DNA of 64,000 nucleotides from a virus: the IMG/VR virus record IMGVR_UViG_3300029268_000006, positions 32,001 to 96,000 of that record; one strand, 5' to 3'. How positions within the stretch are numbered: the stretch's first letter is position 1; every line of letters starts with the position of its first letter. Under the pieces are notes generated by a model that saw only the letters and a program-made list of their open reading frames with translations, was not told the DNA's origin and ran no database searches. Both the position numbers and the translations under genes were made by a program. Shown piece by piece: positions 8,521 to 57,475 of this stretch.

Positions 8521-8528
8521 TTTTTATT

Positions 8529-9506: not shown

Positions 9507-9521
9507 TGTTGTTTTTATTTT

Positions 9522-9530
9522 TATATATTA
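9522..9530 (-). promoter_or_regulatory. TAATATATA motif, candidate phage late promoter class
   Basis: Recurs upstream of terL, structural and endonuclease genes, mostly within about 30 nt of the start: 983-991(+), 9522-9530(-), 10120-10128(-), 13702-13710(-), 16797-16805(-), 18340-18348(-), 33592-33600(+), 40870-40878(+). Confidence 0.6.
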
Positions 9531-9555
9531 ATAGCAAGCGGACAAAATGGGATAT

Positions 9556-10089
9556 TTATTCTACATATTTTAGAATTTTATAAAGAAATAATTTAGTTTT
9601 TTCAATAATGGTTAATTTTCTATATTTTTTAAGCGTTTCGTAATATAATTCACCAATTGAAATTTTAAAAATATATCCATTTTCATCTTTTAAATTTGCT
9701 AACGTATTGAAAATTAAGCACTTACCGGATTGTCTACTAGCCATTAGTATCGAATATCTGTTTTCAGTATATAATTTTATAATATCTTTTTGGTATTCAC
9801 GAAGTTTCATTTGTCCGATGCTACCATCTTCCAATTTAATTTTACAGTAGTGTTCCGCGAAGTAATATACAGATAATTTACATCTGACATATTCACGTAT
9901 CTCTTCTTCTGTCATAGCGAATTTTAATCCCGGTCTTCTAATACCCGGATTATTCTTAAACCACAGTCTTTCAGTTAGTTTAAGTGGTAATGCTAATCTT
10001 TCTTTCTCTTGAATTTCTTTAACTTTTTCAGTAGTTAATATGTGACTTTGATCAATATTTTTATTTTTGGGTGATGTTGTTTTTGCCAT
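9556..10089 (-). CDS. terL: Terminase large subunit, N-terminal fragment fused to a short N-intein (54 aa)
   Basis: gp17-like YYFAEHYCKI, LREYQKDII, ILMASRQSGK|CLIFNT; the intein Cys1 codon is at 9720-9718. Confidence 0.92.
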   Translation of the reverse strand: MAKTTSPKNKNIDQSHILTTEKVKEIQEKERLALPLKLTERLWFKNNPGIRRPGLKFAMTEEEIREYVRCKLSVYYFAEHYCKIKLEDGSIGQMKLREYQKDIIKLYTENRYSILMASRQSGKCLIFNTLANLKDENGYIFKISIGELYYETLKKYRKLTIIEKTKLFLYKILKYVE

Positions 10090-20456: not shown

Positions 20457-21530
20457 ATGAATAAAACAGAAAATTTTATTAAAAAATCTATTGATATTCA
20501 TGGTAATTTATATGATTATTCATTGGTTGAATATATTAATAATAATACCAAAGTAAAAATTTTATGTAATGAACATGGTGAATTTAAACAAAAACCAGTA
20601 AATCATATATATTTTAAATGTGGTTGTCCTAAATGTGCAGGAAAAAATATAACTACACAAGAATTTATAGAAAAATGTAATAAAATTCATGGTAATTTAT
20701 ATGATTATTCATTGGTTGATTATAAAACAATGCACATTAAAATAAAGATAATATGTCCAGAACACGGTATTTTTGAACAAACACCATCTAATCATATTCA
20801 TCATGGATGTAAAAAATGTTTTTTTGATAAAAAGAGAAATAATGAAAAAATAATAATTGAAAAATTCAAAAAATTACATAATAATTTATATGATTATTCA
20901 TTGATTGATTATAAAACTATGAATACCAAAATAAAAATAGTTTGTTTAAAACACGGTATTTTTGAACAAACACCAGTGAATCATTTACAAGGTAAAGGAT
21001 GTTATAAATGTTCACCAAATAGTAAAAAAGATATTTTTTTAATTTTAGAAAAATTAAATGAATTACATAATAATAAATATAATTATGATATGAATTTTAA
21101 TAAAACTTCAAATAAAATTGAAATTTTATGTGACAAACACGGTATTTTTTACCAAACACTAAATAATCATTTGGATGGTCATGGGTGTCCTTTTTGTAAT
21201 GAAAGTAGTGGTGAAAAGAAAATTAATCAATATTTAAGTGAAAAAAATATAAAATTTGAAAGACAAAAAACATTTTCATCTTGTAAAGATAAAAGAAAAT
21301 TACCATTTGATTTTTATTTATGTGATTATAATTTATGTATTGAATATGATGGTGAACAGCATTTTATGATTGTGGAAGAATGGGGTGGTGAAGAAAAATT
21401 TTTAATTATTAAAAAACATGATGAAATAAAAAATGAATTCTGTTGGAAAAATTCAATAAAATTATTGAGAATTAATTATGAAGAAAAAATAGAAGAAAAA
21501 ATATCTAATTTTTTTTTAGACATTCTTTAA
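20457..21530 (+). CDS. Putative homing endonuclease with four Zn-finger-like repeats and a Vsr/DUF559-like domain
   Basis: Four copies of YDYSL.(E/D)Y......I.C..HG.F.Q....H...GCxxC; LPFDFYL...NLCIEYDGEQH. Confidence 0.8.
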   Translation: MNKTENFIKKSIDIHGNLYDYSLVEYINNNTKVKILCNEHGEFKQKPVNHIYFKCGCPKCAGKNITTQEFIEKCNKIHGNLYDYSLVDYKTMHIKIKIICPEHGIFEQTPSNHIHHGCKKCFFDKKRNNEKIIIEKFKKLHNNLYDYSLIDYKTMNTKIKIVCLKHGIFEQTPVNHLQGKGCYKCSPNSKKDIFLILEKLNELHNNKYNYDMNFNKTSNKIEILCDKHGIFYQTLNNHLDGHGCPFCNESSGEKKINQYLSEKNIKFERQKTFSSCKDKRKLPFDFYLCDYNLCIEYDGEQHFMIVEEWGGEEKFLIIKKHDEIKNEFCWKNSIKLLRINYEEKIEEKISNFFLDIL

Positions 21531-21564: not shown

Positions 21565-22746
21565 ATGGATAGAAAAAACGTATTCGACTCAACTTTGAAA
21601 TATTTTAATGGAGATACTTTAGCAGCTGATGTTTGGGTGAATAAATATTGTTTAAAAAATGTTGAAAATGGTGAAATAGTATATTATGAAAATACACCCG
21701 ATGATATGCATCGAAGAATATCAGATGAATTATATAGAATTGAAAACAAATATAAAAATCCTCTTGAAAAAGAAAAAATATTTGATTTACTTAAAAATTT
21801 TAAATATATTATACCACAGGGATCTCCAATGTCTGGTATAGGTAATAATTTTCAAATAGTGAGTTTAAGTAATTGTTTTGTCATTGGACATGAATATGAT
21901 TCATATGGTTCCATTATCATGTGTGATGAAGAACAGATTCAATTGATGAAAAGAAGGGGTGGTGTAGGACACGATTTATCACATATCAGACCAACAGGAA
22001 CCGTAGTTCAAAATTCCGCGTTGACATCAACTGGTATTGTTCCGTTTATGGAAAGATATTCAAATTCAACAAAAGAAGTGGCACAGGATGGTAGAAGAGG
22101 AGCTTTAATGCTTACAATTTCAGTCAAACATCCGGACGCTGAAAATTTTATTGATGCAAAACTAGAGCAAGGAAAAGTGACAGGTTCAAATATTTCAATA
22201 AAAATTGATGATGAATTTATGAATTGTGTTTTAAATGATACACCATATATTCAAAAATTTCCAATAAATTCAGACAATCCAAAGGTTACTAAAAGTATCG
22301 ATGCTAAAAAATTATGGAAAAAAATAATTTACAATGCATGGAAATCAGCAGAACCGGGGGTTTTATTTTGGGATACTGTTATTAGAGAATCTGTTCCAGA
22401 TTGTTATAAAGAAGATGGTTTCACTACAATCAGTACTAATCCTTGTTTATCTGGTGATTCTCTTATTACAACAACAAAGGGTGAAATATCAATTAAAGAA
22501 ATTTTTAATAATTTCAAAAATGAAAAATATCAAGTTTTAACATATAATGAAAAAAATAAAAATTTAGAATATAATAATGTATCTGATGCTATTTTAACAA
22601 AAAGAAATGCCAATATAATAGAAATTGAATTAGTTGATGGAACTACATTAAGATTAACACCAGATCATAAAGTTTATACGAAAAATAGAAAATGGATAGA
22701 AGCATCAAAATTAACAAATGATGATATATTAATAAAAATAGATTAA
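21565..22746 (+). CDS. nrdJ: Class II (B12-dependent) ribonucleotide reductase, N-terminal fragment plus N-intein (100 aa)
   Basis: PQGSPM, SLSNCFV, RRGGVG, AEPG, STNP|CLSGDS (Cys1 at 22444); block B LTPDHKV. Confidence 0.93.
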   Translation: MDRKNVFDSTLKYFNGDTLAADVWVNKYCLKNVENGEIVYYENTPDDMHRRISDELYRIENKYKNPLEKEKIFDLLKNFKYIIPQGSPMSGIGNNFQIVSLSNCFVIGHEYDSYGSIIMCDEEQIQLMKRRGGVGHDLSHIRPTGTVVQNSALTSTGIVPFMERYSNSTKEVAQDGRRGALMLTISVKHPDAENFIDAKLEQGKVTGSNISIKIDDEFMNCVLNDTPYIQKFPINSDNPKVTKSIDAKKLWKKIIYNAWKSAEPGVLFWDTVIRESVPDCYKEDGFTTISTNPCLSGDSLITTTKGEISIKEIFNNFKNEKYQVLTYNEKNKNLEYNNVSDAILTKRNANIIEIELVDGTTLRLTPDHKVYTKNRKWIEASKLTNDDILIKID

Positions 22747-22748
22747 TA

Positions 22749-22796
22749 AATCCATGTGATTATTTTATATATAGGTATAAAATAATCACATGGATT
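22749..22796. promoter_or_regulatory. Perfect 21-bp inverted repeat occluding the translation-initiation region of the nested endonuclease
   Basis: AATCCATGTGATTATTTTATA-TATAGG-TATAAAATAATCACATGGATT, ending 1 nt before ATG 22798. Confidence 0.8.
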
Positions 22797-22797
22797 G

Positions 22798-23562
22798 ATG
22801 GAAAAAATATTATCCTTTTTTAATGATGTAAAATTAAAAAAATTTAAAACAAGAAATGGTGGTTCAATTTATCATGATAAAGACAAAATAAAATCAGATA
22901 TTAGATATGATTTGGTTAAAGAATTTATAGAAAAAAATTATTATACTAATGGTATGGGAATAAAATCAATTATTAAAAAATATAATTTACCAATTACATA
23001 TTCTATTTTAAGATTTTATTTTATAAATTTTTTTAAAATTAAAATTAGAGATAATAAAGAAATAACAGATTTTATAAGAAAATCAAGAAGAGAAAAGGCA
23101 ACATATGAACGAGATAATAAAATTGGGTTTTTTAATCAAAATTTACAAGATAACCTTAAAATTAGAAATAGTACAATAAGAGGGATACAAGGTTATTATT
23201 TTAATATTTCATTAAATAAATATGTATGGTTGAGAAGTTCTTGGGAATATATTTTTGCGAAATGGTTAGATAAAAATAATTATAAATGGGATGTCGAAAT
23301 TAAAACTTTTGAAATTTCGAATAATAAAAAATATAGACCCGATTTTTTTATATTTGATAATAATGATAATATTATTAAAATAATAGAAGTTAAAGGTTAT
23401 TGGAAAGATAAACTTTATAAATTTGTAGAACTAAAAAATATGTTAAATAAATCTAATATTGAATTTATTTTGGTTGATAAAATAAAAACATATTCATATA
23501 ATGGATTTAAACAAGATTTGAATAATTGGAAAAGAGAAAGAATTTTGGATTTAAAAAAATAA
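22798..23562 (+). CDS. Putative PD-(D/E)xK (TnsA-like) homing endonuclease nested in the split nrdJ
   Basis: LRSSWEYIFAKWLD; YRPDFFI; IEVKGYW. Confidence 0.75.
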   Translation: MEKILSFFNDVKLKKFKTRNGGSIYHDKDKIKSDIRYDLVKEFIEKNYYTNGMGIKSIIKKYNLPITYSILRFYFINFFKIKIRDNKEITDFIRKSRREKATYERDNKIGFFNQNLQDNLKIRNSTIRGIQGYYFNISLNKYVWLRSSWEYIFAKWLDKNNYKWDVEIKTFEISNNKKYRPDFFIFDNNDNIIKIIEVKGYWKDKLYKFVELKNMLNKSNIEFILVDKIKTYSYNGFKQDLNNWKRERILDLKK

Positions 23563-23569
23563 TTTTAAT

Positions 23570-25333
23570 ATGAAAGAGATAAAAATTAAAAAAATAAACA
23601 TTAAACAAAATGATGATGTATATGATTTAAAAATAGAAAATAATCATAACTTTTTTGCAAATAAAATATTAGTTCACAACTGTGGTGAGATTCCATTATG
23701 TCCAAATGATTCTTGCCGCTTATTGGCAATAAATTTATATAATTTTGTAAAAAATCCATTTACTAAAGATCCAATTTTTGATTGGGAATGGTTTAAAAAA
23801 TGTGTTTTGTATGCAGAAAGATTCATGGATGATATTATAGATTTGGAAATTGAAAAAATTGAAAAAATTATTGAAAAAATAAAATTAGATCCAGAACCAG
23901 AATATATGAAAAAAGTGGAAATGGAAGTTTGGAATAAAATTATGAATATGACTAAAAAAGGTCGTAGAACTGGATTGGGTGTTACAGCAGAGGGAGATAT
24001 GTTAGCTGGTATGGGTTTAATTTATGGAACCCCGGAAGCAACTGAATTTTCAACTAAAATTCATAAAACACTCGCAATCGAAGCTTATCGTTCATCCTGT
24101 ATTTTAGCTAAAGAAAGAGGTACATTTCCTATATATGATTACAATAAAGAAATAAATAATCCATTTATTAGCAGATTAAAAAATGATGATCCAGAATTGG
24201 ATGAAATGTTAAAAAAATATGGAAGAAGAAATATATCATTACTTACAATTGCACCAACCGGCAGTGTGAGTATTTTAACACAAACGACATCAGGTGTCGA
24301 ACCTGTTTTTCTTGTGTCTTATAAAAGAAGAAGAAAAATAAATCCATCAGATAAAGATATGATGGTGAATTTTGTTGACGATGAGGGAATTAAATGGCAA
24401 GAATATAATGTATTTCATCATAAATTTGAAGTTTGGTTGAAAAACAATGGATATAATATCGATGAAGTGAAACTTATGAAGGAAGAAGATTTGAAAGAAA
24501 TAATCAAATTATCACCTTACTATAAAGCAACATCAAATGATGTTGATTGGGTTGAAAAAATTAAAATGCAAGGTAGTATTCAAAAATATGTCGATCATTC
24601 TATTTCAGTAACAGTAAATTTACCGAAAACTGCAACAGAAGAAATGGTTTCCCAAGTGTATGAAACCGGATGGAGTAGTGGGTGTAAAGGCGTTACTGTA
24701 TATAGAGATGGTTCAAGACAGGGTGTTATTATTTCTAATGAAAGTAAAGATAAAAAAACATCAACAAATAATATTCCAAAAAGGCCAGTAAAATTACAAT
24801 GTGATGTACTTAGATTTGTAAGTAGAGGTAATAAATGGGTTGGTTTTGTTGGTTTAATGGAAGATACTGATGAAACCTATCCATATGAAATGTTTACTGG
24901 ATTGGCTGATGATTTTGTTATTCCTAATTATGTCGAAAAGGGTTTTATTAGAAAGGAAAAAATAAAAGATAGTGAAAACAATTTAATTTCCAGATACGAT
25001 TTTATTTACCATGATAAAGATGGATTTGAAGTGACAATGCAGGGTCTTAATCGTGCATTTGATAGAGAATATTGGAATATTGGTAAATTATTAAGTGGTT
25101 TACTTCGTCATAGAATGCATTTTCCATCAATTATAAAAATCATAGAATCTTTAAAATTAGACGGTGATACTTTGGGTACTTGGAAAAAAGGTGTTATCAG
25201 AATTTTAAAAAGATATATCAAAGAAGGTGAGATGGAAACTGATGAAGAATGTCCAATTTGTAAATCTAAAAATTTGGTTCATAAAGAAGGTTGTGTTTCA
25301 TGTTTGGACTGTCAATGGTCGAGATGTTCTTGA
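23570..25333 (+). CDS. nrdJ: Class II RNR, C-intein (37 aa) plus C-terminal fragment
   Basis: VYDLKI..NHNFFANKILVHN|CGEIPL (junction 23680/23681); RRTGLG, TIAPTG, SISVTVN, KGVTVYRDGSR; C-terminal CxxC..CxxC. Confidence 0.93.
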   Translation: MKEIKIKKINIKQNDDVYDLKIENNHNFFANKILVHNCGEIPLCPNDSCRLLAINLYNFVKNPFTKDPIFDWEWFKKCVLYAERFMDDIIDLEIEKIEKIIEKIKLDPEPEYMKKVEMEVWNKIMNMTKKGRRTGLGVTAEGDMLAGMGLIYGTPEATEFSTKIHKTLAIEAYRSSCILAKERGTFPIYDYNKEINNPFISRLKNDDPELDEMLKKYGRRNISLLTIAPTGSVSILTQTTSGVEPVFLVSYKRRRKINPSDKDMMVNFVDDEGIKWQEYNVFHHKFEVWLKNNGYNIDEVKLMKEEDLKEIIKLSPYYKATSNDVDWVEKIKMQGSIQKYVDHSISVTVNLPKTATEEMVSQVYETGWSSGCKGVTVYRDGSRQGVIISNESKDKKTSTNNIPKRPVKLQCDVLRFVSRGNKWVGFVGLMEDTDETYPYEMFTGLADDFVIPNYVEKGFIRKEKIKDSENNLISRYDFIYHDKDGFEVTMQGLNRAFDREYWNIGKLLSGLLRHRMHFPSIIKIIESLKLDGDTLGTWKKGVIRILKRYIKEGEMETDEECPICKSKNLVHKEGCVSCLDCQWSRCS

Positions 25334-29370: not shown

Positions 29371-29521
29371 TTTCGATAACATTGATGATTCAGTCGATCT
29401 AAAAAGAAGATATACCCAAGAACAATTACTGAAGATATGGGATGATACATATCCTAAATTATCAGAAATTAGTAGTGATAAAATTATTATAACAATTACA
29501 CCACCTGAAAGGTGTTTATAA
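29363..29521 (+). CDS. Small hypothetical protein (52 aa)
   Basis: Not in the track. The ATG overlaps the end of the upstream gene; MINFDNIDDSVDLKRRYTQEQLLKIWDD. Confidence 0.45.
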   Translation: MINFDNIDDSVDLKRRYTQEQLLKIWDDTYPKLSEISSDKIIITITPPERCL

Positions 29522-30610
29522 TTTTCCTGTTCCCTCTAAGTTATCATTTTCAATGGATAAATATCTTGGATGAAAATCGAAACCAATTATTTCACCTTTA
29601 TGATCACCGTCGCGAAGTTTAAGAATTTTTAAACGATATTTGTTATTCTTTCTCATTTCGTTATTTCTGATAATAGCCCATACACAATCCGCTGTTTCAG
29701 CGACAGCTTTACTTTCTGGAATATCCGCCAACTTAATATCATTTGCACCCCAAACAGATTTATCGGTTTGTGTAGCTGTTATCATAGCAACGTTGTATTT
29801 GTCTGCTAAATACCTTAATCCTTCTGCCAGATGTTTTCCTTTTAAGAAAAGGTTGTTACCCATTTCTTTATGTAATTTATCAACAGACATGAGATTAATG
29901 TAGTCAATAATAATCATATCGAATTTAACATTTCTAACTTCAATATATTTATTTATAAGATTATCCAAATCATCGATTGTACATTGACCAGTATTGAATT
30001 TTTTGACCCAAATTTTTCCAATTTTCCCATTATTAAATAAACCTAGATTTGTTGTGTTTTTTAATTGTGATATTTTTGATTTAATAAAATTTGGATCTTT
30101 ACTTAATTCGTCATATTGATCTGCATCAATTTTTAATCTCATTGCACCTAAACGTTTCATAACTTTTCTCTTAGATAATTCGACTGAAACTACTAATACG
30201 TTCGCACCACTATCTGCTGCGTTTTTTGCAGTATTATATAACCACATTGAATTATGACTCAAAATATCATTTGTCCAAAATCTATGATTTTCATCGTTTA
30301 GTTGAAAATCAAACATATTTGATTTTTTATCATGAATATCTTTATAACATTTACAAACAACTTCCACACCATTTTTTGTTTGTATTTTATCACCTGATAC
30401 TAAGTCTTTAACAAAAACTTCGTTCATATTTTCATCAAAAACAATATGGGTATCTGCACATATTAATTCAGATGTTTGTGTTATTAAAACCCATTCATCA
30501 TATTCTATTGTTTTACCTATTGATTTGATATCTGACCAACCATTATCGGTTTCTATTTGCCATTCATCTATTTCTACTGTATCTATAAATTTTCTTTCAA
30601 AATCTAACAT
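29516..30610 (-). CDS. gp41: Replicative helicase (gp41/DnaB-like), long C-intein (120 aa) plus C-terminal fragment
   Basis: ELICADTH; NMFDF..HRFWTNDILSHN|SMWLYN (junction 30251/30250); VSVEL, IIIDY, TATQ, ESKAVAETAD, KLRDG. Confidence 0.92.
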   Translation of the reverse strand: MLDFERKFIDTVEIDEWQIETDNGWSDIKSIGKTIEYDEWVLITQTSELICADTHIVFDENMNEVFVKDLVSGDKIQTKNGVEVVCKCYKDIHDKKSNMFDFQLNDENHRFWTNDILSHNSMWLYNTAKNAADSGANVLVVSVELSKRKVMKRLGAMRLKIDADQYDELSKDPNFIKSKISQLKNTTNLGLFNNGKIGKIWVKKFNTGQCTIDDLDNLINKYIEVRNVKFDMIIIDYINLMSVDKLHKEMGNNLFLKGKHLAEGLRYLADKYNVAMITATQTDKSVWGANDIKLADIPESKAVAETADCVWAIIRNNEMRKNNKYRLKILKLRDGDHKGEIIGFDFHPRYLSIENDNLEGTGKL

Positions 30611-30628
30611 TTTTTATTTTATTCTTTT

Positions 30629-31657
30629 TTAACCATTCAAAAAATCTATACACGTTTGAATAGTTTTTTCTTTATGAAATTTATAATCACATTCCCATAC
30701 AATTAAAATATTATATCCAACATCTTTTATAGAATCAATTTTCAATTTATCTTTTTCCCAAATTTCATATGCAAACATTTGGAGATATTTATGAAAATAA
30801 TTTTTATTATATGTTTTAGGATTACAGTGCCAGTAATCACCGTTGAATTCTATTATTTTTTTATTATATACAAAATCATATGAGAATGTTTTTCCCAATT
30901 CTTTAAAATGTCTAAAAAATTGTTTTTTTCCGTAATGAACATTTTCTAATTTTATTTTTTCCAAAATATTTTCAAATAATTCTAATTCTGGTCCGGAATA
31001 ATTATCATATTTAAATTTTACAAAATCACCATTTTTATATTTGGCTTCTATTTTTTCACTCCATTTATTTTGTCTATTATTCCATATTTCTAGACCTTTA
31101 ATTTCACCATATTTTTCTATACATTTTTCTAATGTGAATGTTTTTTGTCTTTCCGATACTTTATTTTTAGATTCATCTTCCGTGAATCCTTTTTTCATCC
31201 AATATAATTTTTGTGTTGGGTTTACATCAGTATATAAGTGTTTATTATCGTGTCTTTTTTTTATTGCTTTTTTAGATATATCATTTTGTATATTTTTTAT
31301 TATTTTTAATGAATCTTCATTATTAAATCCTCTTTTCAACCAAAATTCGATACTTTGTCTGGATTTTTCCTTAAAAAAATTCTTATTTTTTTCGAATGAT
31401 TTTTGTAATCCAATTGTAATTTTTTCACCTCTGTTTAATGCTCTATCATTCATTAAATCAATAGCATCTTTTTTTGATAAACCATATTTATACATAAGAA
31501 ATTCATACGTTCCTGTGGCTCTAGTTTTTCCCAAACACTCTTTGGAATTACATATCCTATGATACCCCCCACTTATATTAAAAAAAATTGAAGGGTTTCC
31601 ACAGTAATAACAAGTACCTTCATTTTCCTTTTTAAAGTGTTTATCATAGTATTCAAA
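30629..31657 (-). CDS. Putative homing endonuclease nested in the split gp41; open frame begins directly after the IntN stop
   Basis: The tracked ORF starts at TTG 31534, but 41 more open codons (FEYYDKHF..CYYCG..C...C) reach the TAA at 31658-31660; QKTFTLEKCIEKYG; IIEFNGDYWH. Confidence 0.75.
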   Translation of the reverse strand, partial: FEYYDKHFKKENEGTCYYCGNPSIFFNISGGYHRICNSKECLGKTRATGTYEFLMYKYGLSKKDAIDLMNDRALNRGEKITIGLQKSFEKNKNFFKEKSRQSIEFWLKRGFNNEDSLKIIKNIQNDISKKAIKKRHDNKHLYTDVNPTQKLYWMKKGFTEDESKNKVSERQKTFTLEKCIEKYGEIKGLEIWNNRQNKWSEKIEAKYKNGDFVKFKYDNYSGPELELFENILEKIKLENVHYGKKQFFRHFKELGKTFSYDFVYNKKIIEFNGDYWHCNPKTYNKNYFHKYLQMFAYEIWEKDKLKIDSIKDVGYNILIVWECDYKFHKEKTIQTCIDFLNG

Positions 31658-32371
31658 TTACAGTTTTAGATAATTGAAAAATTCACCAATTGTAATTTCC
31701 TTTATTTCTTTGGTTTTTTTATTTTTAATTTTTATGTGAGTATTTGATTTACAGCACTTACCAACTCCAGTTTCACCAAGAAATACATTGAATGTTGATT
31801 TATCCCATCCACCGTGCAAAAGTGTGTCTACACTAGACCAACCGGATGTTATTTTATTTTTGGAAACTTCTTGTTTATGTGATTCTGGATCATCAAAATC
31901 GTCACCCAAATCTTCTTCATCTTCAAGTATTGATATATTACTAAATACTGTTTTTACTTTAGATAAAACATCGACAACATTATCATAATCTATTTCTTTC
32001 AGATTACGAATTAAGTCTATAACAGTATATGTTTTGTTTTTTAAATCATTTGATAATTTCCAAGCTTTGAAATGTCTTTCCAACCATTCTTTATCGTGTA
32101 CGGAATTGTCATTTTTTAGTAATGTTTTTATGACATTATTATTTATCTTTTCTTCCGGATCATTTAATTTGATCATCGCAACAATTTGTTGTGGTGATGC
32201 TACATTTTTTGTTATAATATATTCATCTTTTACTATTTTAAATATAAAACGAATTTCATCGTTTTTAAAGAAATCTGGTTCTACATTTAAGAATTGAGAT
32301 GAATGATCCATTATCCAAGTGAAGAAAAATTTCTCCATTTGAACATTCATCGTTTCTTTATCATTACTCAT
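31658..32371 (-). CDS. gp41: Replicative helicase, N-terminal fragment plus short N-intein (32 aa)
   Basis: GWSSVDTLLHGGW..TFNVFLGETGVGK|CCKSNT (Cys1 at 31756-31754). Confidence 0.92.
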   Translation of the reverse strand: MSNDKETMNVQMEKFFFTWIMDHSSQFLNVEPDFFKNDEIRFIFKIVKDEYIITKNVASPQQIVAMIKLNDPEEKINNNVIKTLLKNDNSVHDKEWLERHFKAWKLSNDLKNKTYTVIDLIRNLKEIDYDNVVDVLSKVKTVFSNISILEDEEDLGDDFDDPESHKQEVSKNKITSGWSSVDTLLHGGWDKSTFNVFLGETGVGKCCKSNTHIKIKNKKTKEIKEITIGEFFNYLKL

Positions 32372-32483: not shown

Positions 32484-33509
32484 TCATTTGTTAAATCTAT
32501 TAAAACTGTTTTGTGATATAAATACATATTCGGAATTTCCTATAAAGTTTTTTAAATCATTATCTCCTTGATATGACATACAAGATTTTAAATAATCTTT
32601 AAAATTATCAACCCAACCACCTATTGAATATTCAACTTTATTCATTCTGATAATACCTTCCGATGTTCTTAATTCTTTTTTACCCCATTTTCTTTGAACA
32701 TCTTTTGTACTCATTCCCCTAAATAATTTATAAATATCACCACCATCTTTAAAATAATCGATTGCATCGTTTTTATCAATTTTTATATATGTTTCATCTT
32801 CTTTTATATAATCTTGTCCACAAGATTCAATTGATTTGTTGATTATATTTCCGAGCATTACACCATCTGATCCTAAACCAATAGATTTTATGATGTCATC
32901 GAAATTTTTAAAACCACCATCAGCTATAATTTTTGTTTTATAATCGTTTTTTATTTTTATGTCATAACATTCTTTTATTAATGATGCCATTGGATAATGT
33001 ATAGAACTGTTTGCGGATGTCGTACATGCGTGCCCCGCCCCTATTCCGCATCGGATATAATTAACATTTAATTTTGCATATTGTTCAAAAGTTTTGGGAT
33101 TTGCAATATTTCCTATCATTAATTCAATATCAATATATTTTTCTTTAATAATTTTAGATATCTCATAAATTCTTATTGAATGTGCATTAGCAACATCAAT
33201 TAATATTCTTTTTGGTAAAGTCTTGTTATTTTTTATTTTCTCTTCTATTTCATCCAAACTATAAGATATGAAACAATCATCTTCAAATTTTGTTTTATCA
33301 TTATTTATTCCTCTAGGAATACAAATATAGAAACCCAAATCTCTAAAAATTTTATAATTGTTTTCATCTATTACTGTATCCATTGGTGATACAAATAATG
33401 GTAAATTGTTATTTTTATCAAATATATTTATTTCTTTTCTAGATCTTATATCACTTATAATAGTTGGTATTAATGAAATATCATTGAAATCGAATTTAAT
33501 ATTATTCAT
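32484..33509 (-). CDS. IMP dehydrogenase/GMP reductase family enzyme
   Basis: FNDISLIP, SPMDTV, IDVANAH, GIGAGHACTT, IIADGG, VMLG, FRGMS, LKSCMSY. Confidence 0.85.
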   Translation of the reverse strand: MNNIKFDFNDISLIPTIISDIRSRKEINIFDKNNNLPLFVSPMDTVIDENNYKIFRDLGFYICIPRGINNDKTKFEDDCFISYSLDEIEEKIKNNKTLPKRILIDVANAHSIRIYEISKIIKEKYIDIELMIGNIANPKTFEQYAKLNVNYIRCGIGAGHACTTSANSSIHYPMASLIKECYDIKIKNDYKTKIIADGGFKNFDDIIKSIGLGSDGVMLGNIINKSIESCGQDYIKEDETYIKIDKNDAIDYFKDGGDIYKLFRGMSTKDVQRKWGKKELRTSEGIIRMNKVEYSIGGWVDNFKDYLKSCMSYQGDNDLKNFIGNSEYVFISQNSFNRFNK

Positions 33510-34904: not shown

Positions 34905-36146
34905 TTATTTTAACAAAATATCATCTGACATTTCACTATCAATTTCAAAATCATTATCTTCTTCAAATTCTTTATATTCTTCGTCAAGTTCTTCATTTGA
35001 TTTTTGAATTTCTTCAAAAGATGAATATTTGAAATAATCGAAAACAATAGGTTCTAATGAATTAATTACATCATCATTAAAAACTTTTCCATTGAATAAA
35101 TTATTTTCATGAATTACTTTATCTAAATGTTTCACGTACCATTTTTTAGGTGGTCCAGATTCATATGTAATTTCTCCTGTTTTTTTATCAACAACTGGTT
35201 TTAACATAGCGATACCAACTTTTTCAAAATTTTCGGGTGTGCAGAAAAATTCTAATCCCTTATATGGATTACAACCTTTGGTGTGATCAATTTCAAATTT
35301 TACTTTTTTTGGTTTTGCTAAACGATTTTTACGAGATTTTGCTGTAATAACAACCCCCTGTGAACCAAGTGAAAAATCATCCTTATCCTTATCTTCCAAT
35401 TTCGCAATAGTTAAATAGATGATTACAGATGCTGAATAATTTATACCTTCACCACCAGATTGTTTTTCGGTGGGGAAAAGATCCATTGTCATGTAGATGT
35501 GATTTGTTGCCACTAAAGGTATGTTTAAGTAACCCAAATCGTTAGTAATAACTCTAAACAATGACTTGATTGCTTTGGCTCTACTCATATCAGATTTTTG
35601 TTTACCTTCAAGTGCATCTTCTACTTCTTTTGTAGATGCTAATTGGCCGATACTATCTAATATAAATAATGTTTTTGATACATCGACACCTTTTTCTTTT
35701 TGTTCTTTCAGAGCATCTAAAATTTGAACAACTGCTATTTTAAGATTTTCGACTTTGTTAGAACGAATCAGTTTAAATTTATCTTCATTTTCAATATTAA
35801 TACCGAACATGTCAAAATCAGTATTTTCAATAGAAAATTCAGTATCAATATAAAAAATATTATATCCTTCTTTTTGGGCGTTTCTTACTATATTTAAAGC
35901 GATGTAGGATTTACCTGTTTGTGGAGGACCTGCTAGTATAGTAATTCTATTTTTCGGAACTCCACCTTTTTTAATGCTTTTTGAAATTAATGCATTAAGA
36001 ATATAAATTCCCGTGCTGATATAAGATTTTTCCCCTTTCAGATTATCAATAGTAATCATAGATTTCTTTGATAATCCATCAATTACATTTGAAATTTTTG
36101 AAAAATCAAAATCGTTTTTTGGATTTGATTTTATTTGTTTCGCCAT
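34905..36146 (-). CDS. uvsX: RecA/UvsX-like recombinase
   Basis: GGVPKNRITILAGPPQTGKS; YIDTE; LDSIG; TNH; GGEGINYSAS; K.RKNR. Confidence 0.92.
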   Translation of the reverse strand: MAKQIKSNPKNDFDFSKISNVIDGLSKKSMITIDNLKGEKSYISTGIYILNALISKSIKKGGVPKNRITILAGPPQTGKSYIALNIVRNAQKEGYNIFYIDTEFSIENTDFDMFGINIENEDKFKLIRSNKVENLKIAVVQILDALKEQKEKGVDVSKTLFILDSIGQLASTKEVEDALEGKQKSDMSRAKAIKSLFRVITNDLGYLNIPLVATNHIYMTMDLFPTEKQSGGEGINYSASVIIYLTIAKLEDKDKDDFSLGSQGVVITAKSRKNRLAKPKKVKFEIDHTKGCNPYKGLEFFCTPENFEKVGIAMLKPVVDKKTGEITYESGPPKKWYVKHLDKVIHENNLFNGKVFNDDVINSLEPIVFDYFKYSSFEEIQKSNEELDEEYKEFEEDNDFEIDSEMSDDILLK

Positions 36147-36199: not shown

Positions 36200-37822
36200 T
36201 TAATTTTTCCAGATAAATTTCAAACTACCACTATCATAAATTCGATAAATCTTTCTTTCTAACATGATTTCATGTTCTGTTTTGTTCGGATCAAAACCTT
36301 CACTAACTAATTTATCTTTTCTAAAATTAAATCTATGATAACGTTTTTTATCTATAATATAGTAATAATTTGGTTGAGTTTTGTGAATTAATTTAAATCC
36401 AAGTTGTTTATACAATTCCCCTTGACTCCATGATCTATCAGCGTAACTAATCACTTCCTTATGTTTGTAATTTTCGATAAAATATTTGAATACTTTTTCA
36501 GAGCCACCAATTACTGATGTGTTTAATTTACTACAAAATCTCAACATTTCATAAACACCATCAGAATTACTTTGTTTCATAAATTTACGTTTCGATCCAA
36601 AAGTCATCAAGGAAACCAATACATCATTATAAAACAAACCAAGTTTAATCTGTGATCCGACAAATCCTTGTAAATGACTTTTTTCTAAAAAATCACGAAT
36701 TAATTTATTATCTGTAATTTCTTTAATGATACATTTACGGGCGTAAATTTTATTTGGTGTTTTACCTATTAAATTTAGGATTCTGGATTTAATTATTTCT
36801 TGTTTATAAATCCAATCATCTTCATAAATATGTATTAATTTTATATCTTGTTGTTCACATTTTTCTGTTTTATCTAAATGATAATTATTATCGACACCAA
36901 ATTCATTGTGCCAAAATAATCCATTAAATTCAAATGCCAATTTTAAATCTGGTAAATAAATGTCTAGTTCATATGGTGAAATAATATTTCTTTTATTTAA
37001 TTGAATTTCTTTATTGTAATTTTCTTTAATGAAATTTTGAAGTTGTATTTCATAACCACTATTTGAAAAAGAATTTATCGGATTACAAAATGGACATAAA
37101 ATAGTTTTATATGATATTCTATTTTTTATTGAAGAATTCATTTTAAATATATGTCCTTTTTCACACACATATTCATTATTATTGTTTACTAACATAATAC
37201 CATATTTAGATAAAATATTTAATCTTTTTATCATACGAGTATGTGATGATTTTTTACGAAAATCAGAATTTTTATTTAAATTATCAACTCCATATTTTTC
37301 TAAACATGTTTTTTTATATTGTTCTAAATTATTATAGTTTTCATCACCATATTTTTCAAGTTTAGTTTGCTTTGATTTGTTTTTGAATTCATCCAATTGT
37401 AAAGCGTGTTCTATCCCATAATTTTTAAATATTGTTTTTTTATTTTTTTCTATGTTATTATAGTTTTCATCATTATATCTTTCAATTTTAGTTTGTTTGG
37501 ATTTATCTTTAAAAATATTAGTAGTAAAAAAATATTCATTACCATATTTATTTTTATTTGTAAGTTTATTTTTTACTATACTACATTTTTTACAAGTTAT
37601 AAAATTATATTTTGATAACCTCAAAACGTAAGTTTGATATGACATTTTTAATATTTTTTCACACAAATCACATTTAACTTCAATTATTTGATGAGATCCA
37701 TTTGATAAATGTTCAACAGGAATTTTTAAGATATCTTTTAATTTAATATCATATTTAAGATTTTTATAAAAATTAATATTCTTTTTATTTATTTTTATTT
37801 CAACTTCTTTTGTTATTAACAT
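36200..37822 (-). CDS. Hef-like putative homing endonuclease (KYG repeats, Vsr-like domain, YARKC..SYAD domain)
   Basis: ELDIYLPDLKLAFEFNGLFWH; IYARKC; HLQG; LRFCSK; ISYADRSWSQG. Confidence 0.8.
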   Translation of the reverse strand: MLITKEVEIKINKKNINFYKNLKYDIKLKDILKIPVEHLSNGSHQIIEVKCDLCEKILKMSYQTYVLRLSKYNFITCKKCSIVKNKLTNKNKYGNEYFFTTNIFKDKSKQTKIERYNDENYNNIEKNKKTIFKNYGIEHALQLDEFKNKSKQTKLEKYGDENYNNLEQYKKTCLEKYGVDNLNKNSDFRKKSSHTRMIKRLNILSKYGIMLVNNNNEYVCEKGHIFKMNSSIKNRISYKTILCPFCNPINSFSNSGYEIQLQNFIKENYNKEIQLNKRNIISPYELDIYLPDLKLAFEFNGLFWHNEFGVDNNYHLDKTEKCEQQDIKLIHIYEDDWIYKQEIIKSRILNLIGKTPNKIYARKCIIKEITDNKLIRDFLEKSHLQGFVGSQIKLGLFYNDVLVSLMTFGSKRKFMKQSNSDGVYEMLRFCSKLNTSVIGGSEKVFKYFIENYKHKEVISYADRSWSQGELYKQLGFKLIHKTQPNYYYIIDKKRYHRFNFRKDKLVSEGFDPNKTEHEIMLERKIYRIYDSGSLKFIWKN

Positions 37823-52861: not shown

Positions 52862-52885
52862 AAACCCCGGAAAATCCGGGGTTTT
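52862..52885. terminator. Bidirectional terminator
   Basis: AAACCCCGGA-AAA-TCCGGGGTTTT between convergent genes. Confidence 0.85.
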
Positions 52886-52933: not shown

Positions 52934-53923
52934 TTATTTCTTTTCGTTATCGATCTTATCTGAGAAATCATCAATATAATTAATATAATCGAGAAATTTT
53001 GGTTCTCTTTTTAACGAATTTTTCCGTTCATTTGGTAAATCGATTTCAATATGACAACGAAGAGTTGCTGGATTTGCATCTAATATAAAAATATCGGTTG
53101 AAAGAAATACAGCTTCTCGAATATCATGTGTGACTAACAAAATAGTTGGGTCTAAACCATTATTATCTTGGAAGATTTTACGAAGAAATAATTGCATTGA
53201 TCGTCTGGTTACGGTGTCTAATGCACCAAACGGTTCATCCATCAATAAAATATTCGGATTAGCCACCAAATTACGAGCTATGGCAACTCTTTGTAACTGA
53301 CCCCCGGATAGTATAGGGTATTTTGCCCACTTCGATTCATGACCACTTAAACCCACAATTTTAATCATCTCCATTGCTTTCTCACGAGCTTCCTTTTTTG
53401 GTGTTCCACTTAGGATTAACGGAAGTGCAACATTATCCAAAACAGATTTCCAAGGGAATGAAGAATATTGTTGGAAAACCATCGGGATGTGATTATCGTC
53501 CTTGAGTTTTGTACCGTGAAGATAAACACTACCGGATGTTGGTTTTTGTAAACCACAAATATAACGTAATATTGTACTATTATGTGATAAAATACCATTA
53601 ACAAAAAATCTTCTTTGAGATATTTCTGTTAATTCTATATCTATCATGTTATCTTCAACTTTTGTTTCAATTATAGATATAACTTTTTCTAAACCATTAT
53701 TTGTTATAATTAAATTATCAATTTTTAAATCTTTAACAAATATTTCATTTATATTTTTATCAAACACTATATGTGTGTCTGCACATTTTAATTCGTGATT
53801 TTCGGTTTTCAATATCCATATTATATATGGAATTGTAATTGATATAGATTTAATATCAACAAAACCATCATCTGTTAATATTTCATATTCATCATTTTCT
53901 AAAATTTTAATATATTTTCTCAT
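52934..53923 (-). CDS. NitT/TauT-type ABC ATPase, long C-intein (about 115 aa) plus C-terminal fragment
   Basis: Likely start is ATG 53923. ELKCADTH; FFVNGILSHN|STILRYICGLQKPTSG (junction 53579/53578); Q-loop MVFQ, signature LSGGQLQRV, Walker B LLMDEPFGALD, H-loop LVTHD. Confidence 0.92.
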   Translation of the reverse strand: MRKYIKILENDEYEILTDDGFVDIKSISITIPYIIWILKTENHELKCADTHIVFDKNINEIFVKDLKIDNLIITNNGLEKVISIIETKVEDNMIDIELTEISQRRFFVNGILSHNSTILRYICGLQKPTSGSVYLHGTKLKDDNHIPMVFQQYSSFPWKSVLDNVALPLILSGTPKKEAREKAMEMIKIVGLSGHESKWAKYPILSGGQLQRVAIARNLVANPNILLMDEPFGALDTVTRRSMQLFLRKIFQDNNGLDPTILLVTHDIREAVFLSTDIFILDANPATLRCHIEIDLPNERKNSLKREPKFLDYINYIDDFSDKIDNEKK

Positions 53924-53925
53924 TT

Positions 53926-54095
53926 TTATGTATTTAAAAATATTAAACAATCATTTATTGTTTTTTCTTTATTTTCTTTATAATCATATTCAAAACAAAA
54001 TAACCATTTTTTTTAATTTCTTCATCTCTTATTAAATCTCTTTTTTTATTTTCAGAATTTTTTCTATGAATTCAATAATTTTATTTTTATTTTTT
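53926..54095 (-). pseudogene. Decayed Vsr/DUF559-like endonuclease remnant inside the split ABC ATPase locus
   Basis: Across two frameshifts it reads KIIEF/HRKNSENKKRDLIRDEEIKKNGYFV/EYDYKENKEKTINDCLIFLNT*, paralleling the C-termini of ORFs 8529 and 30629. Confidence 0.75.
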
Positions 54096-54374
54096 ATAAA
54101 AAAAATCCGGTTTAATTATTTTATTTTCTAATTTTAATCTATATTCATTATTTTTACCACTATCGTCTAATCTTGTGAGATGCGTATTTAAAGCTTCAAA
54201 TCAATTGAAAAAGATGAAAGACCTTGATTTAATTGGTGATAATGGAGAAAATCCTAAATCAAATAATTACAGATATGTATATAATCCTGCTAATTAAACG
54301 CATGGTCAAACACATGGTCAAACTGTCCATGCTCGCATGGTCATTCGCATGGTAGTATTTAAAGTCTTTTTTGG

Positions 54375-54986
54375 TTAATTTGGATGTTGTAAACGTTTTA
54401 TCATTTCTTCTGCTTTTATTTTTTCAATTTTTTGTGTTTTTTTATTTCTAATTGTAATAATAGAATCCATAGTAAAACACTTCCCACATCCAGATTTTCC
54501 TAAAATTGTAACAAATTGACCCCTACCTTTAATATCTTTAACACTTAAATTCAAATTTTCAAATACGACATTTTTCCCCTTAACAAGTTTTGGTGCTGGT
54601 GGTTTTAAAAACATTGAATTTTTCTTATTCGTAACATTTCCGGTACTATCAGTTTTACCCGGAACTGTTGGTAAGATAACATCATATTCTTGTTTTATAT
54701 CAACAAGATCAATGATGTTTACTTTTTCGTAATGTTGATTCGGACTTTTGACTTCAATAATATTTGTATCTTCAAAGTCATTGATAAACATTTCTGGCTT
54801 TGGTTCTGGTTTATCTTCACTTTCAATTGTTTCTGGTTCTTCAACCACTTTAGGTTCTTCAACCTTTAATTCGACCTTTAATTCATCGAATTTATTTTCG
54901 ATTTTTGATTCTTCGACATTTTCCGGTTGAACCTTTGATTCTTCAATAGGTTCGGGTTTTTTTCTATTACTAAAAATATTTCCCAT
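54375..54986 (-). CDS. ABC ATPase N-terminal fragment (acidic extension, Walker A) plus short N-intein (34 aa)
   Basis: VFENLNLSV..GQFVTILGKSGCGK|CFTMDSIITIRNKKT (Cys1 at 54479-54477). Confidence 0.9.
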   Translation of the reverse strand: MGNIFSNRKKPEPIEESKVQPENVEESKIENKFDELKVELKVEEPKVVEEPETIESEDKPEPKPEMFINDFEDTNIIEVKSPNQHYEKVNIIDLVDIKQEYDVILPTVPGKTDSTGNVTNKKNSMFLKPPAPKLVKGKNVVFENLNLSVKDIKGRGQFVTILGKSGCGKCFTMDSIITIRNKKTQKIEKIKAEEMIKRLQHPN

Positions 54987-54988
54987 TG

Positions 54989-55792
54989 TTATACGTATTT
55001 GAATTTGAAACTACTTTTATCAATCCATTTGAAAAGTTTATCCGATAAATATCCGATAAAGATAATTTCCAATAAAATGGCGTACAACATATCGCTTCTA
55101 GACGCCTTTTGAATGGGGAAAGTCATACCACCCAAACCACCTTGATTATTAATCATTTCAGCAACTACAACATAAGTCCAAGAAATTGCCACAAGTACCC
55201 TGATATCATCTGAAACTCTTGATATTACCAATGGTAAATATAAATGTCTTATTTGTTGCCAACGACTAGCACCTAATGTTAGAATTGTTTGTTTGTATAT
55301 TTTATCGATTTCATCAATACGTTGTACCACCACAGGAATTAAATATACAGCGATACCAAATGCTAGGAAATGAACCTTAACACCAAAATAAATACCAAAT
55401 AAAGATATAAATATTCCGGTTGCTGCGGGTAATGGTAGGAATCGAACAGAATCAATTTGTTTACTTAATAATGATCTAAATATAGGGAATAGACCAATAA
55501 GAAAACCTAGTGGGATGGCGATTATAATTGCTTCTAAATATCCAAGAAAATTGATTGATAACGAATAACCAGTATTAGAAATTAAATTATATGTTGGATC
55601 TTTGATCATCTCACCATATGACATAAGAACGTTAATTGGATTTGGTAGGATACGACTATTAATCCAACCCATCGTTGATGTCAACAACCAAAGAAATATA
55701 AGAAGAATCCAACCAATGATTTGTGTGATGGTGGCAGTTTTTTTATCTACCTGACCATCCATTTTAAACAATTCTTTTATTTGAGAATTCAT
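54989..55792 (-). CDS. ABC transporter permease (SsuC/TauC-like)
   Basis: ILPNP; multiple TM helices; LGASRWQQIRHLYLP EAA-type loop; ISWTYVVVAE..GLG. Confidence 0.9.
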   Translation of the reverse strand: MNSQIKELFKMDGQVDKKTATITQIIGWILLIFLWLLTSTMGWINSRILPNPINVLMSYGEMIKDPTYNLISNTGYSLSINFLGYLEAIIIAIPLGFLIGLFPIFRSLLSKQIDSVRFLPLPAATGIFISLFGIYFGVKVHFLAFGIAVYLIPVVVQRIDEIDKIYKQTILTLGASRWQQIRHLYLPLVISRVSDDIRVLVAISWTYVVVAEMINNQGGLGGMTFPIQKASRSDMLYAILLEIIFIGYLSDKLFKWIDKSSFKFKYV

Positions 55793-55888
55793 TCTTTATT
55801 TTTATGTGATTAAAAAATTGAGGAATAAGAAAAATATATATTCCTACCCCAAGATAGGAGTAGGAATATATGAAGTCATATGAAGTTA

Positions 55889-57475
55889 TTATCTGTTGAT
55901 GAGTTGAAATTCAGTACGGCGATTTTTTGATTTCATTTCGTTTGTACTTTCAGTTTCACACCCAACAACTGGTTTGGATGATCCATTACCAATTACAGCC
56001 ACAATATAGGATGAATTGATACCTCTTTTAATCATATAATCAGCCACCGATTGTGCCCTCTTTTTGGACAAAATGACGTTTGATTTTGGATTACCAGTTT
56101 TATCGGTATTACCTTCCAAACGAAATTTAGAACCACCAGCAACACCTTTGGCGATAGGAATAATTTCCCTATCTATTTTTTCCATTGCGTATTCATCTAA
56201 AGTGAAAGAATTAACAGCAAATTCAATGGATACTGGTTTAATTGCTGATGCTTCAGCCGTTTTGATATCTTCACTAACAGATGAAAAAACGATTTCACCT
56301 TCAGCTGAATGAATTCCACCACTCAAAGTAGTAATACCCTGAATAAGACTAGGATCAGAAACCTGACGCCAAGGGAATGGATTTTTAGCCAAACCAACTT
56401 CAGTATAAACCCTTGTCATTTTAGTATAAAGTTCATCACCGTCAACACCATTAAAGGATGAATTGAGTCCGAAGAAGTTTACATTATCACCATATGTTGA
56501 ATACCTCACTTTATACATACCATCAGCGACAACAAATTTTGGTGCGTTGAAAGCCTTCGAAAAAGTAGATGCGATACTATCATATATTGGTGGAATACTA
56601 TTTGGTTTACCATCAGACATTTTACTGATTTCATCGGTAAATATAGTAGGATCGATTTTTTTACAAAGTTCGTTAGTTTCTGCGTTGATTGTCAACCAAG
56701 CAACTGCTATTTTTTCAAAATATTTCTTTTTCTTTTCAAAAACATCTTTACGAACTATAATACCATCCATAATAATGTTACGAGCGAATTTAGTTGAAAA
56801 AATTTCATGTGAACCGGCAATGGCTGTGTAACAATCACCATCATCTGGGGACCAAACTACAGCAACGGGAACTTCACCACTTTTGAACATTTTAGCGGAT
56901 TCAATACCGTCGCCAACTTTTACCAATTCAACATCATTTTGTGTAAGACCGGCGGTTTCAAGTACCCTTAAAAGAAGTGTATGTGATGCTGTTCCAACAG
57001 CCACTGCTATTTTCTTACCTTTTAAATCAGATACACTTTTAATAGTACGAACACCAACAATAACATCGGCACCACGACTATCATCAATTTTAAGAATTTG
57101 TACAACACCTAATTTCATCAAGTCTGACATTTCTCCATTTTCGATTGGTGAAATATCGGTGGTAGTATAAATAAAATCTACCTTACCTTCTTTCAAAGCG
57201 TCAATACAATTTGAACGAACATCCATTTGTTCAATCTTCAATTTAAGACCAAACTCCTTTGTAAGACGTGATTCTTTATTCACATCTTTTCCATGATTGA
57301 GATATACAATCGGAGCAAATCCACTCCAAGTGTTAAGAGATCCTGTCAAATCGGCGGATGAATCACCTGTCAATGACTTACTGATTGTCGGCCAAAAATA
57401 AATAGATGCCGGGATTACGATGATGAGGGCGATTACCGTCCAAGTTAACCATCCAATTTGTCTTAAAAAATTCAT
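55889..57475 (-). CDS. NMT1/THI5-like substrate-binding protein fused to an OmpA-like peptidoglycan-binding domain
   Basis: N-terminal TM helix; DDSRGADVIV, DLKGKKIAV; C-terminal LEGNTD.TG...N..LS..RAQSV...GNG..KP...NRRTEF. Confidence 0.88.
   Translation of the reverse strand: MNFLRQIGWLTWTVIALIIVIPASIYFWPTISKSLTGDSSADLTGSLNTWSGFAPIVYLNHGKDVNKESRLTKEFGLKLKIEQMDVRSNCIDALKEGKVDFIYTTTDISPIENGEMSDLMKLGVVQILKIDDSRGADVIVGVRTIKSVSDLKGKKIAVAVGTASHTLLLRVLETAGLTQNDVELVKVGDGIESAKMFKSGEVPVAVVWSPDDGDCYTAIAGSHEIFSTKFARNIIMDGIIVRKDVFEKKKKYFEKIAVAWLTINAETNELCKKIDPTIFTDEISKMSDGKPNSIPPIYDSIASTFSKAFNAPKFVVADGMYKVRYSTYGDNVNFFGLNSSFNGVDGDELYTKMTRVYTEVGLAKNPFPWRQVSDPSLIQGITTLSGGIHSAEGEIVFSSVSEDIKTAEASAIKPVSIEFAVNSFTLDEYAMEKIDREIIPIAKGVAGGSKFRLEGNTDKTGNPKSNVILSKKRAQSVADYMIKRGINSSYIVAVIGNGSSKPVVGCETESTNEMKSKNRRTEFQLINR

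Follow-up and report, generated by a model that had tools for sequence, protein, structure and literature searches.

Two neighbouring open reading frames (ORFs) on the minus strand of the viral DNA analysed here (the window, 64,000 nucleotides (nt) in length, bases 32001-96000 of the 132-kb IMG/VR virus record IMGVR_UViG_3300029268_000006) encode a single ATP-binding cassette (ABC) ATPase, interrupted between the Lys and the Ser of its Walker A motif (GKSGCGK/ST; here and below, a slash marks a junction between host protein and intein). With a CheckV completeness of 19%, the 132-kb record, and hence the window, represents part of a very large phage; in the phage database the locus is closest to LR756501, a 735-kb uncultured phage. 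The parts of the ATPase (exteins) and the N- and C-terminal intein fragments (IntN and IntC) are arranged as follows, lengths being given in amino acids (aa):

54375-54986, minus strand: N-half ORF, 203 aa, ending ...RGQFVTILGKSGCGK/CFTMDSIITIRNKKTQKIEKIKAEEMIKRLQHPN-stop
54480-54986, minus strand: N-extein, 169 aa, which aligns to the N-terminal part of the unsplit orthologues L001 and L005 described below
54378-54479, minus strand: IntN, 34 aa (CFTMDSIITIRNKKTQKIEKIKAEEMIKRLQHPN), with the stop codon next to it at 54375-54377
53924-54374, minus strand: spacer between the halves, devoid of intact ORFs, of Rfam matches and, on the coding strand, of terminator-like sites
52934-53950, minus strand: C-half ORF as read from a TTG codon
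53579-53923, minus strand: IntC, 115 aa (MRKYIKIL...FFVNGILSHN), with block B CADTH, the candidate block-F residue D95 and a terminal His-Asn
52934-53578, minus strand: C-extein, 214 aa plus stop, starting from Ser+1 (the Walker A Ser of GK-S) and containing the Q-loop, LSGGQ, Walker B and H-switch

The N-extein begins with an acidic low-complexity extension and continues with the first strands of the nucleotide-binding domain as far as Walker A (...GKSGCGK). A likelier start for the C-half than the TTG is the ATG at 53923 (MRKY...), which is the choice of the gene callers in all relatives. On the C side the junction reads ...FFVNGILSHN/STILRYICGL and, when the exteins are joined in silico, the product is a protein of 383 aa with Walker A (GKSGCGKS), Q-loop, LSGGQ, Walker B (ILLMDEP) and H-switch in this order, its C-half matching Pfam ABC_tran at 3e-19. 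The original prediction, made from the DNA letters alone, had described an ATPase split at the P-loop by an atypical intein with a 34-aa IntN, an IntC of about 115 aa and these same two junctions, and a NitT/TauT-like spliced product with all ABC motifs. The junctions, the homology and the IntC fold bear this description out. Relatives are named 'NitT/TauT family' by the Joint Genome Institute (JGI), and the best NCBIfam matches of the ATPase are PRK11248 (taurine, 160 bits for a cut-off of 357) and TIGR01184 (nitrate, 146 bits for a cut-off of 292), both well below cut-off.

The same junctions were found in metagenomes, in seven N-halves and seven or more C-halves whose alleles are 56-99% identical, which excludes chance as the source of the split and its junctions. 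Cys1, directly after GCGK, is invariant in the seven N-halves, and their IntN is always 34 aa long, with the motif CF[TS]K[DN]S.ITIRNK.T and with its first 20 residues almost invariant. When residues 1-130 of the C-half ORF, counted from the TTG (IntC and the first extein residues), served as query, 189 proteins were found; in an alignment of 34 of these, seven positions never vary (C47, A48, D49, H51, D95, S113 and N115), and 90% or more of the sequences have H114. The +1 residue is Ser or Thr in 112 of 130 parsed relatives, the remaining parses being mis-hits of the regular expression inside the intein. The element consequently has the features of a class 1 intein, namely Cys1, the block-B His (CADTH), the terminal His-Asn and Ser+1 (...SHN/S). 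The Pfam family Intein_splicing is matched unaided by 18 of the 34 aligned relatives and by 64 of 143 wider representatives (see below), and a profile of the family matches VidaL (2e-9), gp41-1 (9e-5) and CatC (2.5e-3, over the full length of CatC).

Structure prediction points in the same direction. An AlphaFold2 model of IntC alone is an all-beta domain with a predicted local distance difference test (pLDDT) score of 92.6, and its top Foldseek match is VidaL (PDB 6vgv), with a template modelling (TM) score of 0.82 and a root-mean-square deviation of 1.3 Å over 103 columns. The top 30 or more PDB matches are inteins or HINT domains, among them gp41-1, Ssp DnaB and Cat (TM 0.75). IntC is thus predicted, from the model, to adopt the HINT fold. 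The split is N-proximal because block B sits in the C-fragment. In contiguous relatives an IntN-like segment (C..[DN][ST].[IV]T[IV]RNKKTG) is followed by a variable linker and then by the IntC-like part, a layout which identifies IntN as the missing N-terminal piece of the fold. The length of IntN and its alignment to these contiguous relatives suggest that the break lies at the S2 position, IntN taking in helix alpha-1. In every allele the halves carry opposite net charges, from +1 to +8 for IntN (+4 in the window) and from -8 to -15 for IntC, as has been reported for the split inteins of fractured genes (PMC2677866).

These dimensions are familiar ones. Natural atypical split inteins have an IntN of 15-37 aa (PMC13014065), and the published IntN/IntC lengths are 25/104 for AceL-TerL, 37/115 for GOS-TerL and 30/104 aa for Cat-TerL (PMC11766414), a range that includes the 34/115 found here. 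The AceL, GOS and Cat inteins of the terminase large subunit (TerL; PDB 6dsl) resemble the ABC intein in that they are split near the N-terminus, hold block B in IntC and come from phage-like metagenomic genes. They differ from it in their host, a terminase rather than an ABC transporter ATPase, and in their nucleophile pair, which is Cys/Cys in AceL and Ser/Cys in GOS but Cys1/Ser+1 here; the identity of the ABC IntC to CatC is only about 22%. VidaL, the best match both by structure and by profile, is also cysteine-dependent and atypically split, but it is split after beta-strand 2 (the S1 site) and has a 16-aa IntN (PMC13014065), whereas the IntN here has 34 aa and the S2 site is suggested by its sequence. 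The tools AceL-TerL, GOS-TerL, Cat and VidaL already come from this family, and the proposal that the locus offers a new tool for protein engineering loses its novelty for that reason.

Orthologues without an intein define the insertion point. In LR756501 (L001:5911-7068) a one-piece ATPase of 385 aa occupies the same three-gene operon, and L005 (IMG/VR UViG_3300028581_000044) encodes a one-piece ATPase of 390 aa, which shares 78.5% identity with the spliced product. Both run through GK-STILRY uninterrupted, GKSGCGK/STILRYICGL aligning to GKSGCGKSTILRYICGL of L005 and to L001 exactly, and the insertion point is therefore established as precise and in-frame. The C-extein of one split allele (P0002) is identical to the unsplit L005 at 213 of 214 residues, and the N-extein of P0125 is identical to the unsplit L001 at 141 of 150; exteins so similar with and without the intein indicate recent gain or precise loss in at least two lineages. 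The acidic N-terminal extension, which had been suspected of localising the N-precursor, is also present in L001 and L005. It is thus a feature of the ATPase, unrelated to the split, and that suggestion is unsupported.

The same site of an orthologous phage ATPase (GCGK/ST) is occupied in L006:2696-4690 (IMGVR_UViG_3300035208_002255) by an unsplit intein, about 390 aa long, in which two LAGLIDADG motifs are present. This architecture is shared by 13 further metagenome clusters (P0273-P0286), which JGI names only as NitT/TauT ATP-binding proteins. The LAGLIDADG inteins agree with the split intein in host family, operon and precise insertion point, but they are maxi-inteins (about 390 aa) that enclose an endonuclease domain and have CVAKGTWV... 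as N-terminus. The search for unsplit orthologues and same-site insertions in related phages, which the original prediction had recommended, has therefore yielded both, namely L001 and L005 on the one hand, and the split alleles and L006 on the other.

The spacer between the halves bears on the history of the split. In the related locus L012 (metagenome contig Ga0209099_1000038), the N-half, a complete ORF of 365 aa and the C-half follow one another in the same operon. The middle ORF matches DUF559 and MTES_1575 (Vsr-like nuclease fold) and is related to the ORFs that lie between the DnaB and TerL halves elsewhere in the window (see below). Among the ABC split loci whose context was examined, only L012 has this endonuclease intact. 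The spacer of the window contains:

53924-54168, minus strand: decayed 3' remnant of a free-standing Vsr-like/DUF559 endonuclease gene, corresponding to about residues 276-362 of the 365-aa L012 endonuclease
54299-54353, no strand assigned: a CGCATGGTCA-like repeat in four tandem-like copies, within the spacer's 5' part just past the N-half stop, absent from the L012 spacer

The remnant matches the L012 endonuclease in tblastn (E 4.5e-16) and, at the nucleotide level, window 54168-53911 aligns to L012 3231-3513 with 70% identity and 27 gap positions (blastn, E 2e-34). Stop codons and frameshifts disable it, and its catalytic EFDGTYYH motif has suffered a 16-nt deletion; to judge by these lesions, the endonuclease gene of the window is dead and mostly deleted. 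Two further candidates in the spacer were rejected: a match to the start of the L012 endonuclease (FKYASH, over ~10 codons) is too weak to claim (E 0.08-0.29), and an RNA hairpin at the CATGGTCA repeats, of the kind described by Dassa et al. upstream of endonuclease genes, gave a non-significant fold (z = -1.6).

The spacer also bears on the possibility that mis-assembly, a frameshift error or an RNA-level intron makes a contiguous intein look split. The spacer gave no Rfam match at E values up to 1, and the idea that it holds a group I/II intron or another kind of RNA element was rejected accordingly. The stop after the 34-aa IntN and the ATG-MRKY start of IntC recur on independent contigs from several sources, and a complete endonuclease ORF occupies the L012 spacer. 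We regard an artefact of this sort as barely conceivable.

The arrangement closely follows the fractured genes of Dassa et al. 2009 (PMC2677866), in which adjacent halves on the same strand likewise end or start with an intein half and a Vsr-like endonuclease ORF lies between them, this ORF being intact in L012 and a remnant in the window. A free-standing endonuclease between the halves is thus present at the orthologous L012 locus and absent from the window itself. One locus of that study, gp41-7, was reported to have lost its endonuclease (PMC2677866); with its remnant, and with the intact ORF in L012, the window therefore shows the endonuclease-loss stage described there and, compared with the loci of that study, the remnant is still recognisable here. 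Unlike that of the ABC locus, the split inteins of PMC2677866 have a long IntN and a short IntC, the break being at the canonical site. They were reported in gp41, IMPDH, DnaE, NrdA/J, ligase and terminase, and that paper mentions neither ABC, P-loop nor transport proteins.

The fractured ATPase belongs to an importer operon, of which the remaining features are:

55889-57475, minus strand: substrate-binding protein gene, NMT1/SsuA-like with a C-terminal OmpA-like domain (Pfam OmpA 6e-14, NMT1 2e-10; NCBIfam), the first gene of the operon
55836-55871: terminator-like hairpin between the substrate-binding protein gene and the permease gene
54989-55792, minus strand: ABC permease gene, directly upstream of the ATPase N-half in the same operon (Pfam BPD_transp_1 2e-14; NCBIfam SaoP/TauC-like)
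52862-52884, minus strand: terminator-like hairpin of 10 pairs (6 G-C) with a T-run, after the C-half

The ATG of the N-half, as read off the sequence, lies 2 nt past the permease stop, and the synteny of permease, substrate-binding protein and ATPase is retained in eight related loci (L001, L005-L010 and L012). The terminator-like site after the C-half is a strong one, and the spacer has none on the coding strand. Both halves are probably co-transcribed with the permease as one operon. A promoter scan at the locus returned sites no commoner than in shuffled sequence. The substrate-binding protein has an N-terminal membrane anchor, then the NMT1/SsuA-like domain and lastly the OmpA-like domain, of a peptidoglycan-binding type; this unusual fusion is kept in LR756501 and L005-L012.

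We consider it highly likely that the locus carries a splicing-competent, atypically split and selfish class-1 intein in the ATPase, the endonuclease of which has decayed, splicing itself being inferred. The importer ATPase gene is a 'fractured gene', in which a class-1 intein (Cys1, block-B His, His-Asn, Ser+1) sits between the Walker A Lys and Ser and is split after its N-terminal ~30 residues, at what we take to be the atypical site of S2 type that AceL-TerL and GOS-TerL also have. The HINT fold would be completed when the basic 34-aa IntN binds the 115-aa IntC, which is acidic and largely pre-formed; by trans-splicing, ...GKSGCGK would be ligated to STILRY... and a 383-aa ATPase with a restored P-loop would result. 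The split probably arose when a free-standing Vsr-like homing endonuclease gene inserted in the intein-coding DNA and mobilised the intein. With that gene reduced to its 3' remnant, the intein would now be an immobile passenger, held splicing-competent through selection on the ATPase.

Such selection is apparent. Compared with L012, IntC has a proportion of nonsynonymous differences (pN) of 0.116 and of synonymous differences (pS) of 0.687, for a ratio of nonsynonymous to synonymous substitution rates (dN/dS) of 0.068, and is as constrained as the C-extein (dN/dS 0.116); IntC is under strong purifying selection (dN/dS ~0.07). Several points weigh against our reading. (i), these dN/dS ratios are approximate because dS against L012 is saturated (>1.5), and (ii), IntN gives a dN/dS of 0.38, over 34 codons only. 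(iii), Pfam searches with the N-half and the IntC of the window itself reached no intein family and, as a single sequence, IntC matches CatC weakly (E 0.052). (iv), the first ~130 nt of the spacer, with the four CATGGTCA-like repeats, are unexplained. (v), the splicing and the association of the halves are themselves inferred.

The locus could instead be dead or non-splicing, the ATPase being a pseudogene or the halves associating non-covalently without ligation. The decayed endonuclease between the halves attests that decay occurs here, and fractured phage enzymes are known that assemble non-covalently (PMC3045599). Decay of the ATPase is nonetheless difficult to reconcile with the strong constraint on both exteins and on IntC, with the intact ABC motifs and intein catalytic residues, and with the persistence of the same architecture in seven or more alleles of 56-99% identity. 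As for assembly without ligation, the break lies inside Walker A, and an unligated complex would have ~150 foreign residues in its phosphate-binding loop. We find a dead or non-splicing locus improbable, by a shade more so than the regulatory explanation, to which we now turn.

The original prediction had seen in the split a possible post-translational gate, transport being switched on only once the two precursors have met and spliced. On this explanation the split intein would be kept because conditional trans-splicing, depending on timing, redox state or the stoichiometry of the halves, turns the transporter on. Other inteins are known to splice conditionally at P-loops (PMC4513877, PMC6195587 and PMC7360933), the intein has outlasted its endonuclease under purifying selection and, speculatively, Cys1 and the invariant block-B Cys could form a redox-sensitive pair. 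However, whenever an intein sits in a needed gene it should be under purifying selection, because it is seldom deleted precisely; the intein is dispensable, as phage ATPases almost identical to this one work in its absence; and the locus has no feature specific to regulation. The accompanying endonuclease gene and the frequent changes of extein along the intein tree (below) fit a selfish element, and the marks of such an element (the L012 endonuclease, the remnant in the window and the near-identical exteins with and without intein) are what the locus displays in place of a gate. We thus think a regulatory gate improbable. Its more specific form, a domesticated intein whose trans-splicing, after endonuclease loss, times or conditions importer assembly during infection, possibly by redox control via Cys1 and the block-B Cys, appears just as doubtful to us; if true, it would be the first intein-gated membrane transporter.

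The split, selfish intein that we favour belongs to a large family. A phmmer search of 1.84 billion representative sequences with IntC returned 751 clusters at 50% identity, 416 of them at 1e-10 or better. Among the best 143 of the 751, about 100 start with IntC and are thus split at the same site, and about 29 carry an IntC-like part internally. The exteins of these 143 are Terminase_6N in 73 cases, DnaB_C in 18, Clp-like AAA_2 in 7, ABC_tran in 2, and others. The hosts of the family are mostly TerL, which is also the host of AceL, GOS and Cat, and DnaB, ABC ATPases being rare hosts (2/143). In the examples inspected, the intein lies after the GK of a P-loop and is followed by Ser or Thr, and the family appears to be aimed at the Walker A GK/S or GK/T site of many P-loop nucleoside triphosphatases. 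In an IntC tree, built on 116 columns and poorly resolved, eight ABC alleles including that of the window form one supported clade (SH-like support 98), three other ABC alleles fall near DnaB- or Clp-type inteins, and the extein type switches many times. A metagenome scan returned two loci. At L013:2625-4616 (Ga0172379_10000208), a TerL is interrupted, at a site other than a P-loop, by a contiguous mini-intein of 133 aa that belongs to this family (...EYN/CLKGDS...FFVNGILSHN/CSF); the family therefore also occupies other sites, in one piece.

The window itself contains further fractured genes, two of them with sister inteins of the same family:

29516-32371, minus strand: DnaB/gp41-like helicase, with an atypical split intein, a sister of the ABC one, breaking it at Walker A
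31658-32371, minus strand: DnaB-like N-half, ending GETGVGK/CCKSNTHIKIKNKKTKEIKEITIGEFFNYLKL, with a 32-aa IntN
30629-31534, minus strand: Vsr-like endonuclease ORF between the DnaB-like halves
29516-30610, minus strand: DnaB-like C-half, with a 120-aa IntC ending ...NDILSHN/SMWLY
4956-10089, minus strand: terminase large subunit, fractured at SRQSGK/C by a sister split intein of the same family
9556-10089, minus strand: TerL part bearing a 54-aa IntN-containing tail
8529-9506 and 7375-8520 (DUF7487), minus strand: two endonuclease-like ORFs between the TerL halves
21565-25333, plus strand: NrdJ ribonucleotide reductase, fractured at TNP/CGE by a canonically split intein
22795-23562, plus strand: 255-aa ORF between the NrdJ halves

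The DnaB-like IntC is 51% identical to the ABC IntC. The TerL C-half has 808 aa, and its IntC ends ...NDILSLN/TV, with a Leu in place of the usual penultimate His. The NrdJ intein, with an IntN of ~105 aa and an IntC of 37 aa ending ...NKILVHN/CGE, makes its locus a canonical example, in the same window, of the fractured-gene type of PMC2677866. An IMPDH-like ORF (32484-33509) was considered as another fractured gene and rejected, no intein motif having been seen in it. The window is unusually rich in genes of homing-endonuclease type: an endonuclease-like ORF with DUF7487 (36200-37822, minus strand) adjoins a RecA/UvsX-like gene (34905-36146), and another (20457-21530, plus strand), upstream of nrdJ, combines repeated zinc-ribbon-like modules with a Vsr-like C-terminus.

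The locus is thus a known intein family in a known fractured-gene arrangement, in a host protein class not reported before, and the understanding of inteins is unchanged by it. Full-text literature searches retrieved no account of any ABC transporter ATPase with an intein, whether split or whole, and intein surveys name none either, an absence in the literature searched that is not proof; the claim that a naturally split intein is unreported in a solute-transport ATPase stands to this extent. The range of intein hosts, especially of naturally split ones, is extended from enzymes of replication, repair, nucleotide metabolism and packaging to a solute-transport ATPase of huge phages. Atypically split inteins, which the literature calls rare, here constitute a large metagenomic family, from which candidate ligation tools with a short IntN could be drawn, Cys1/Ser+1 and Cys1/Thr+1 members among them. 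With a decayed endonuclease, a retained split intein, and intact-endonuclease and intein-less alleles in close relatives, the ABC ATPase locus provides a clean natural case of the late homing cycle.

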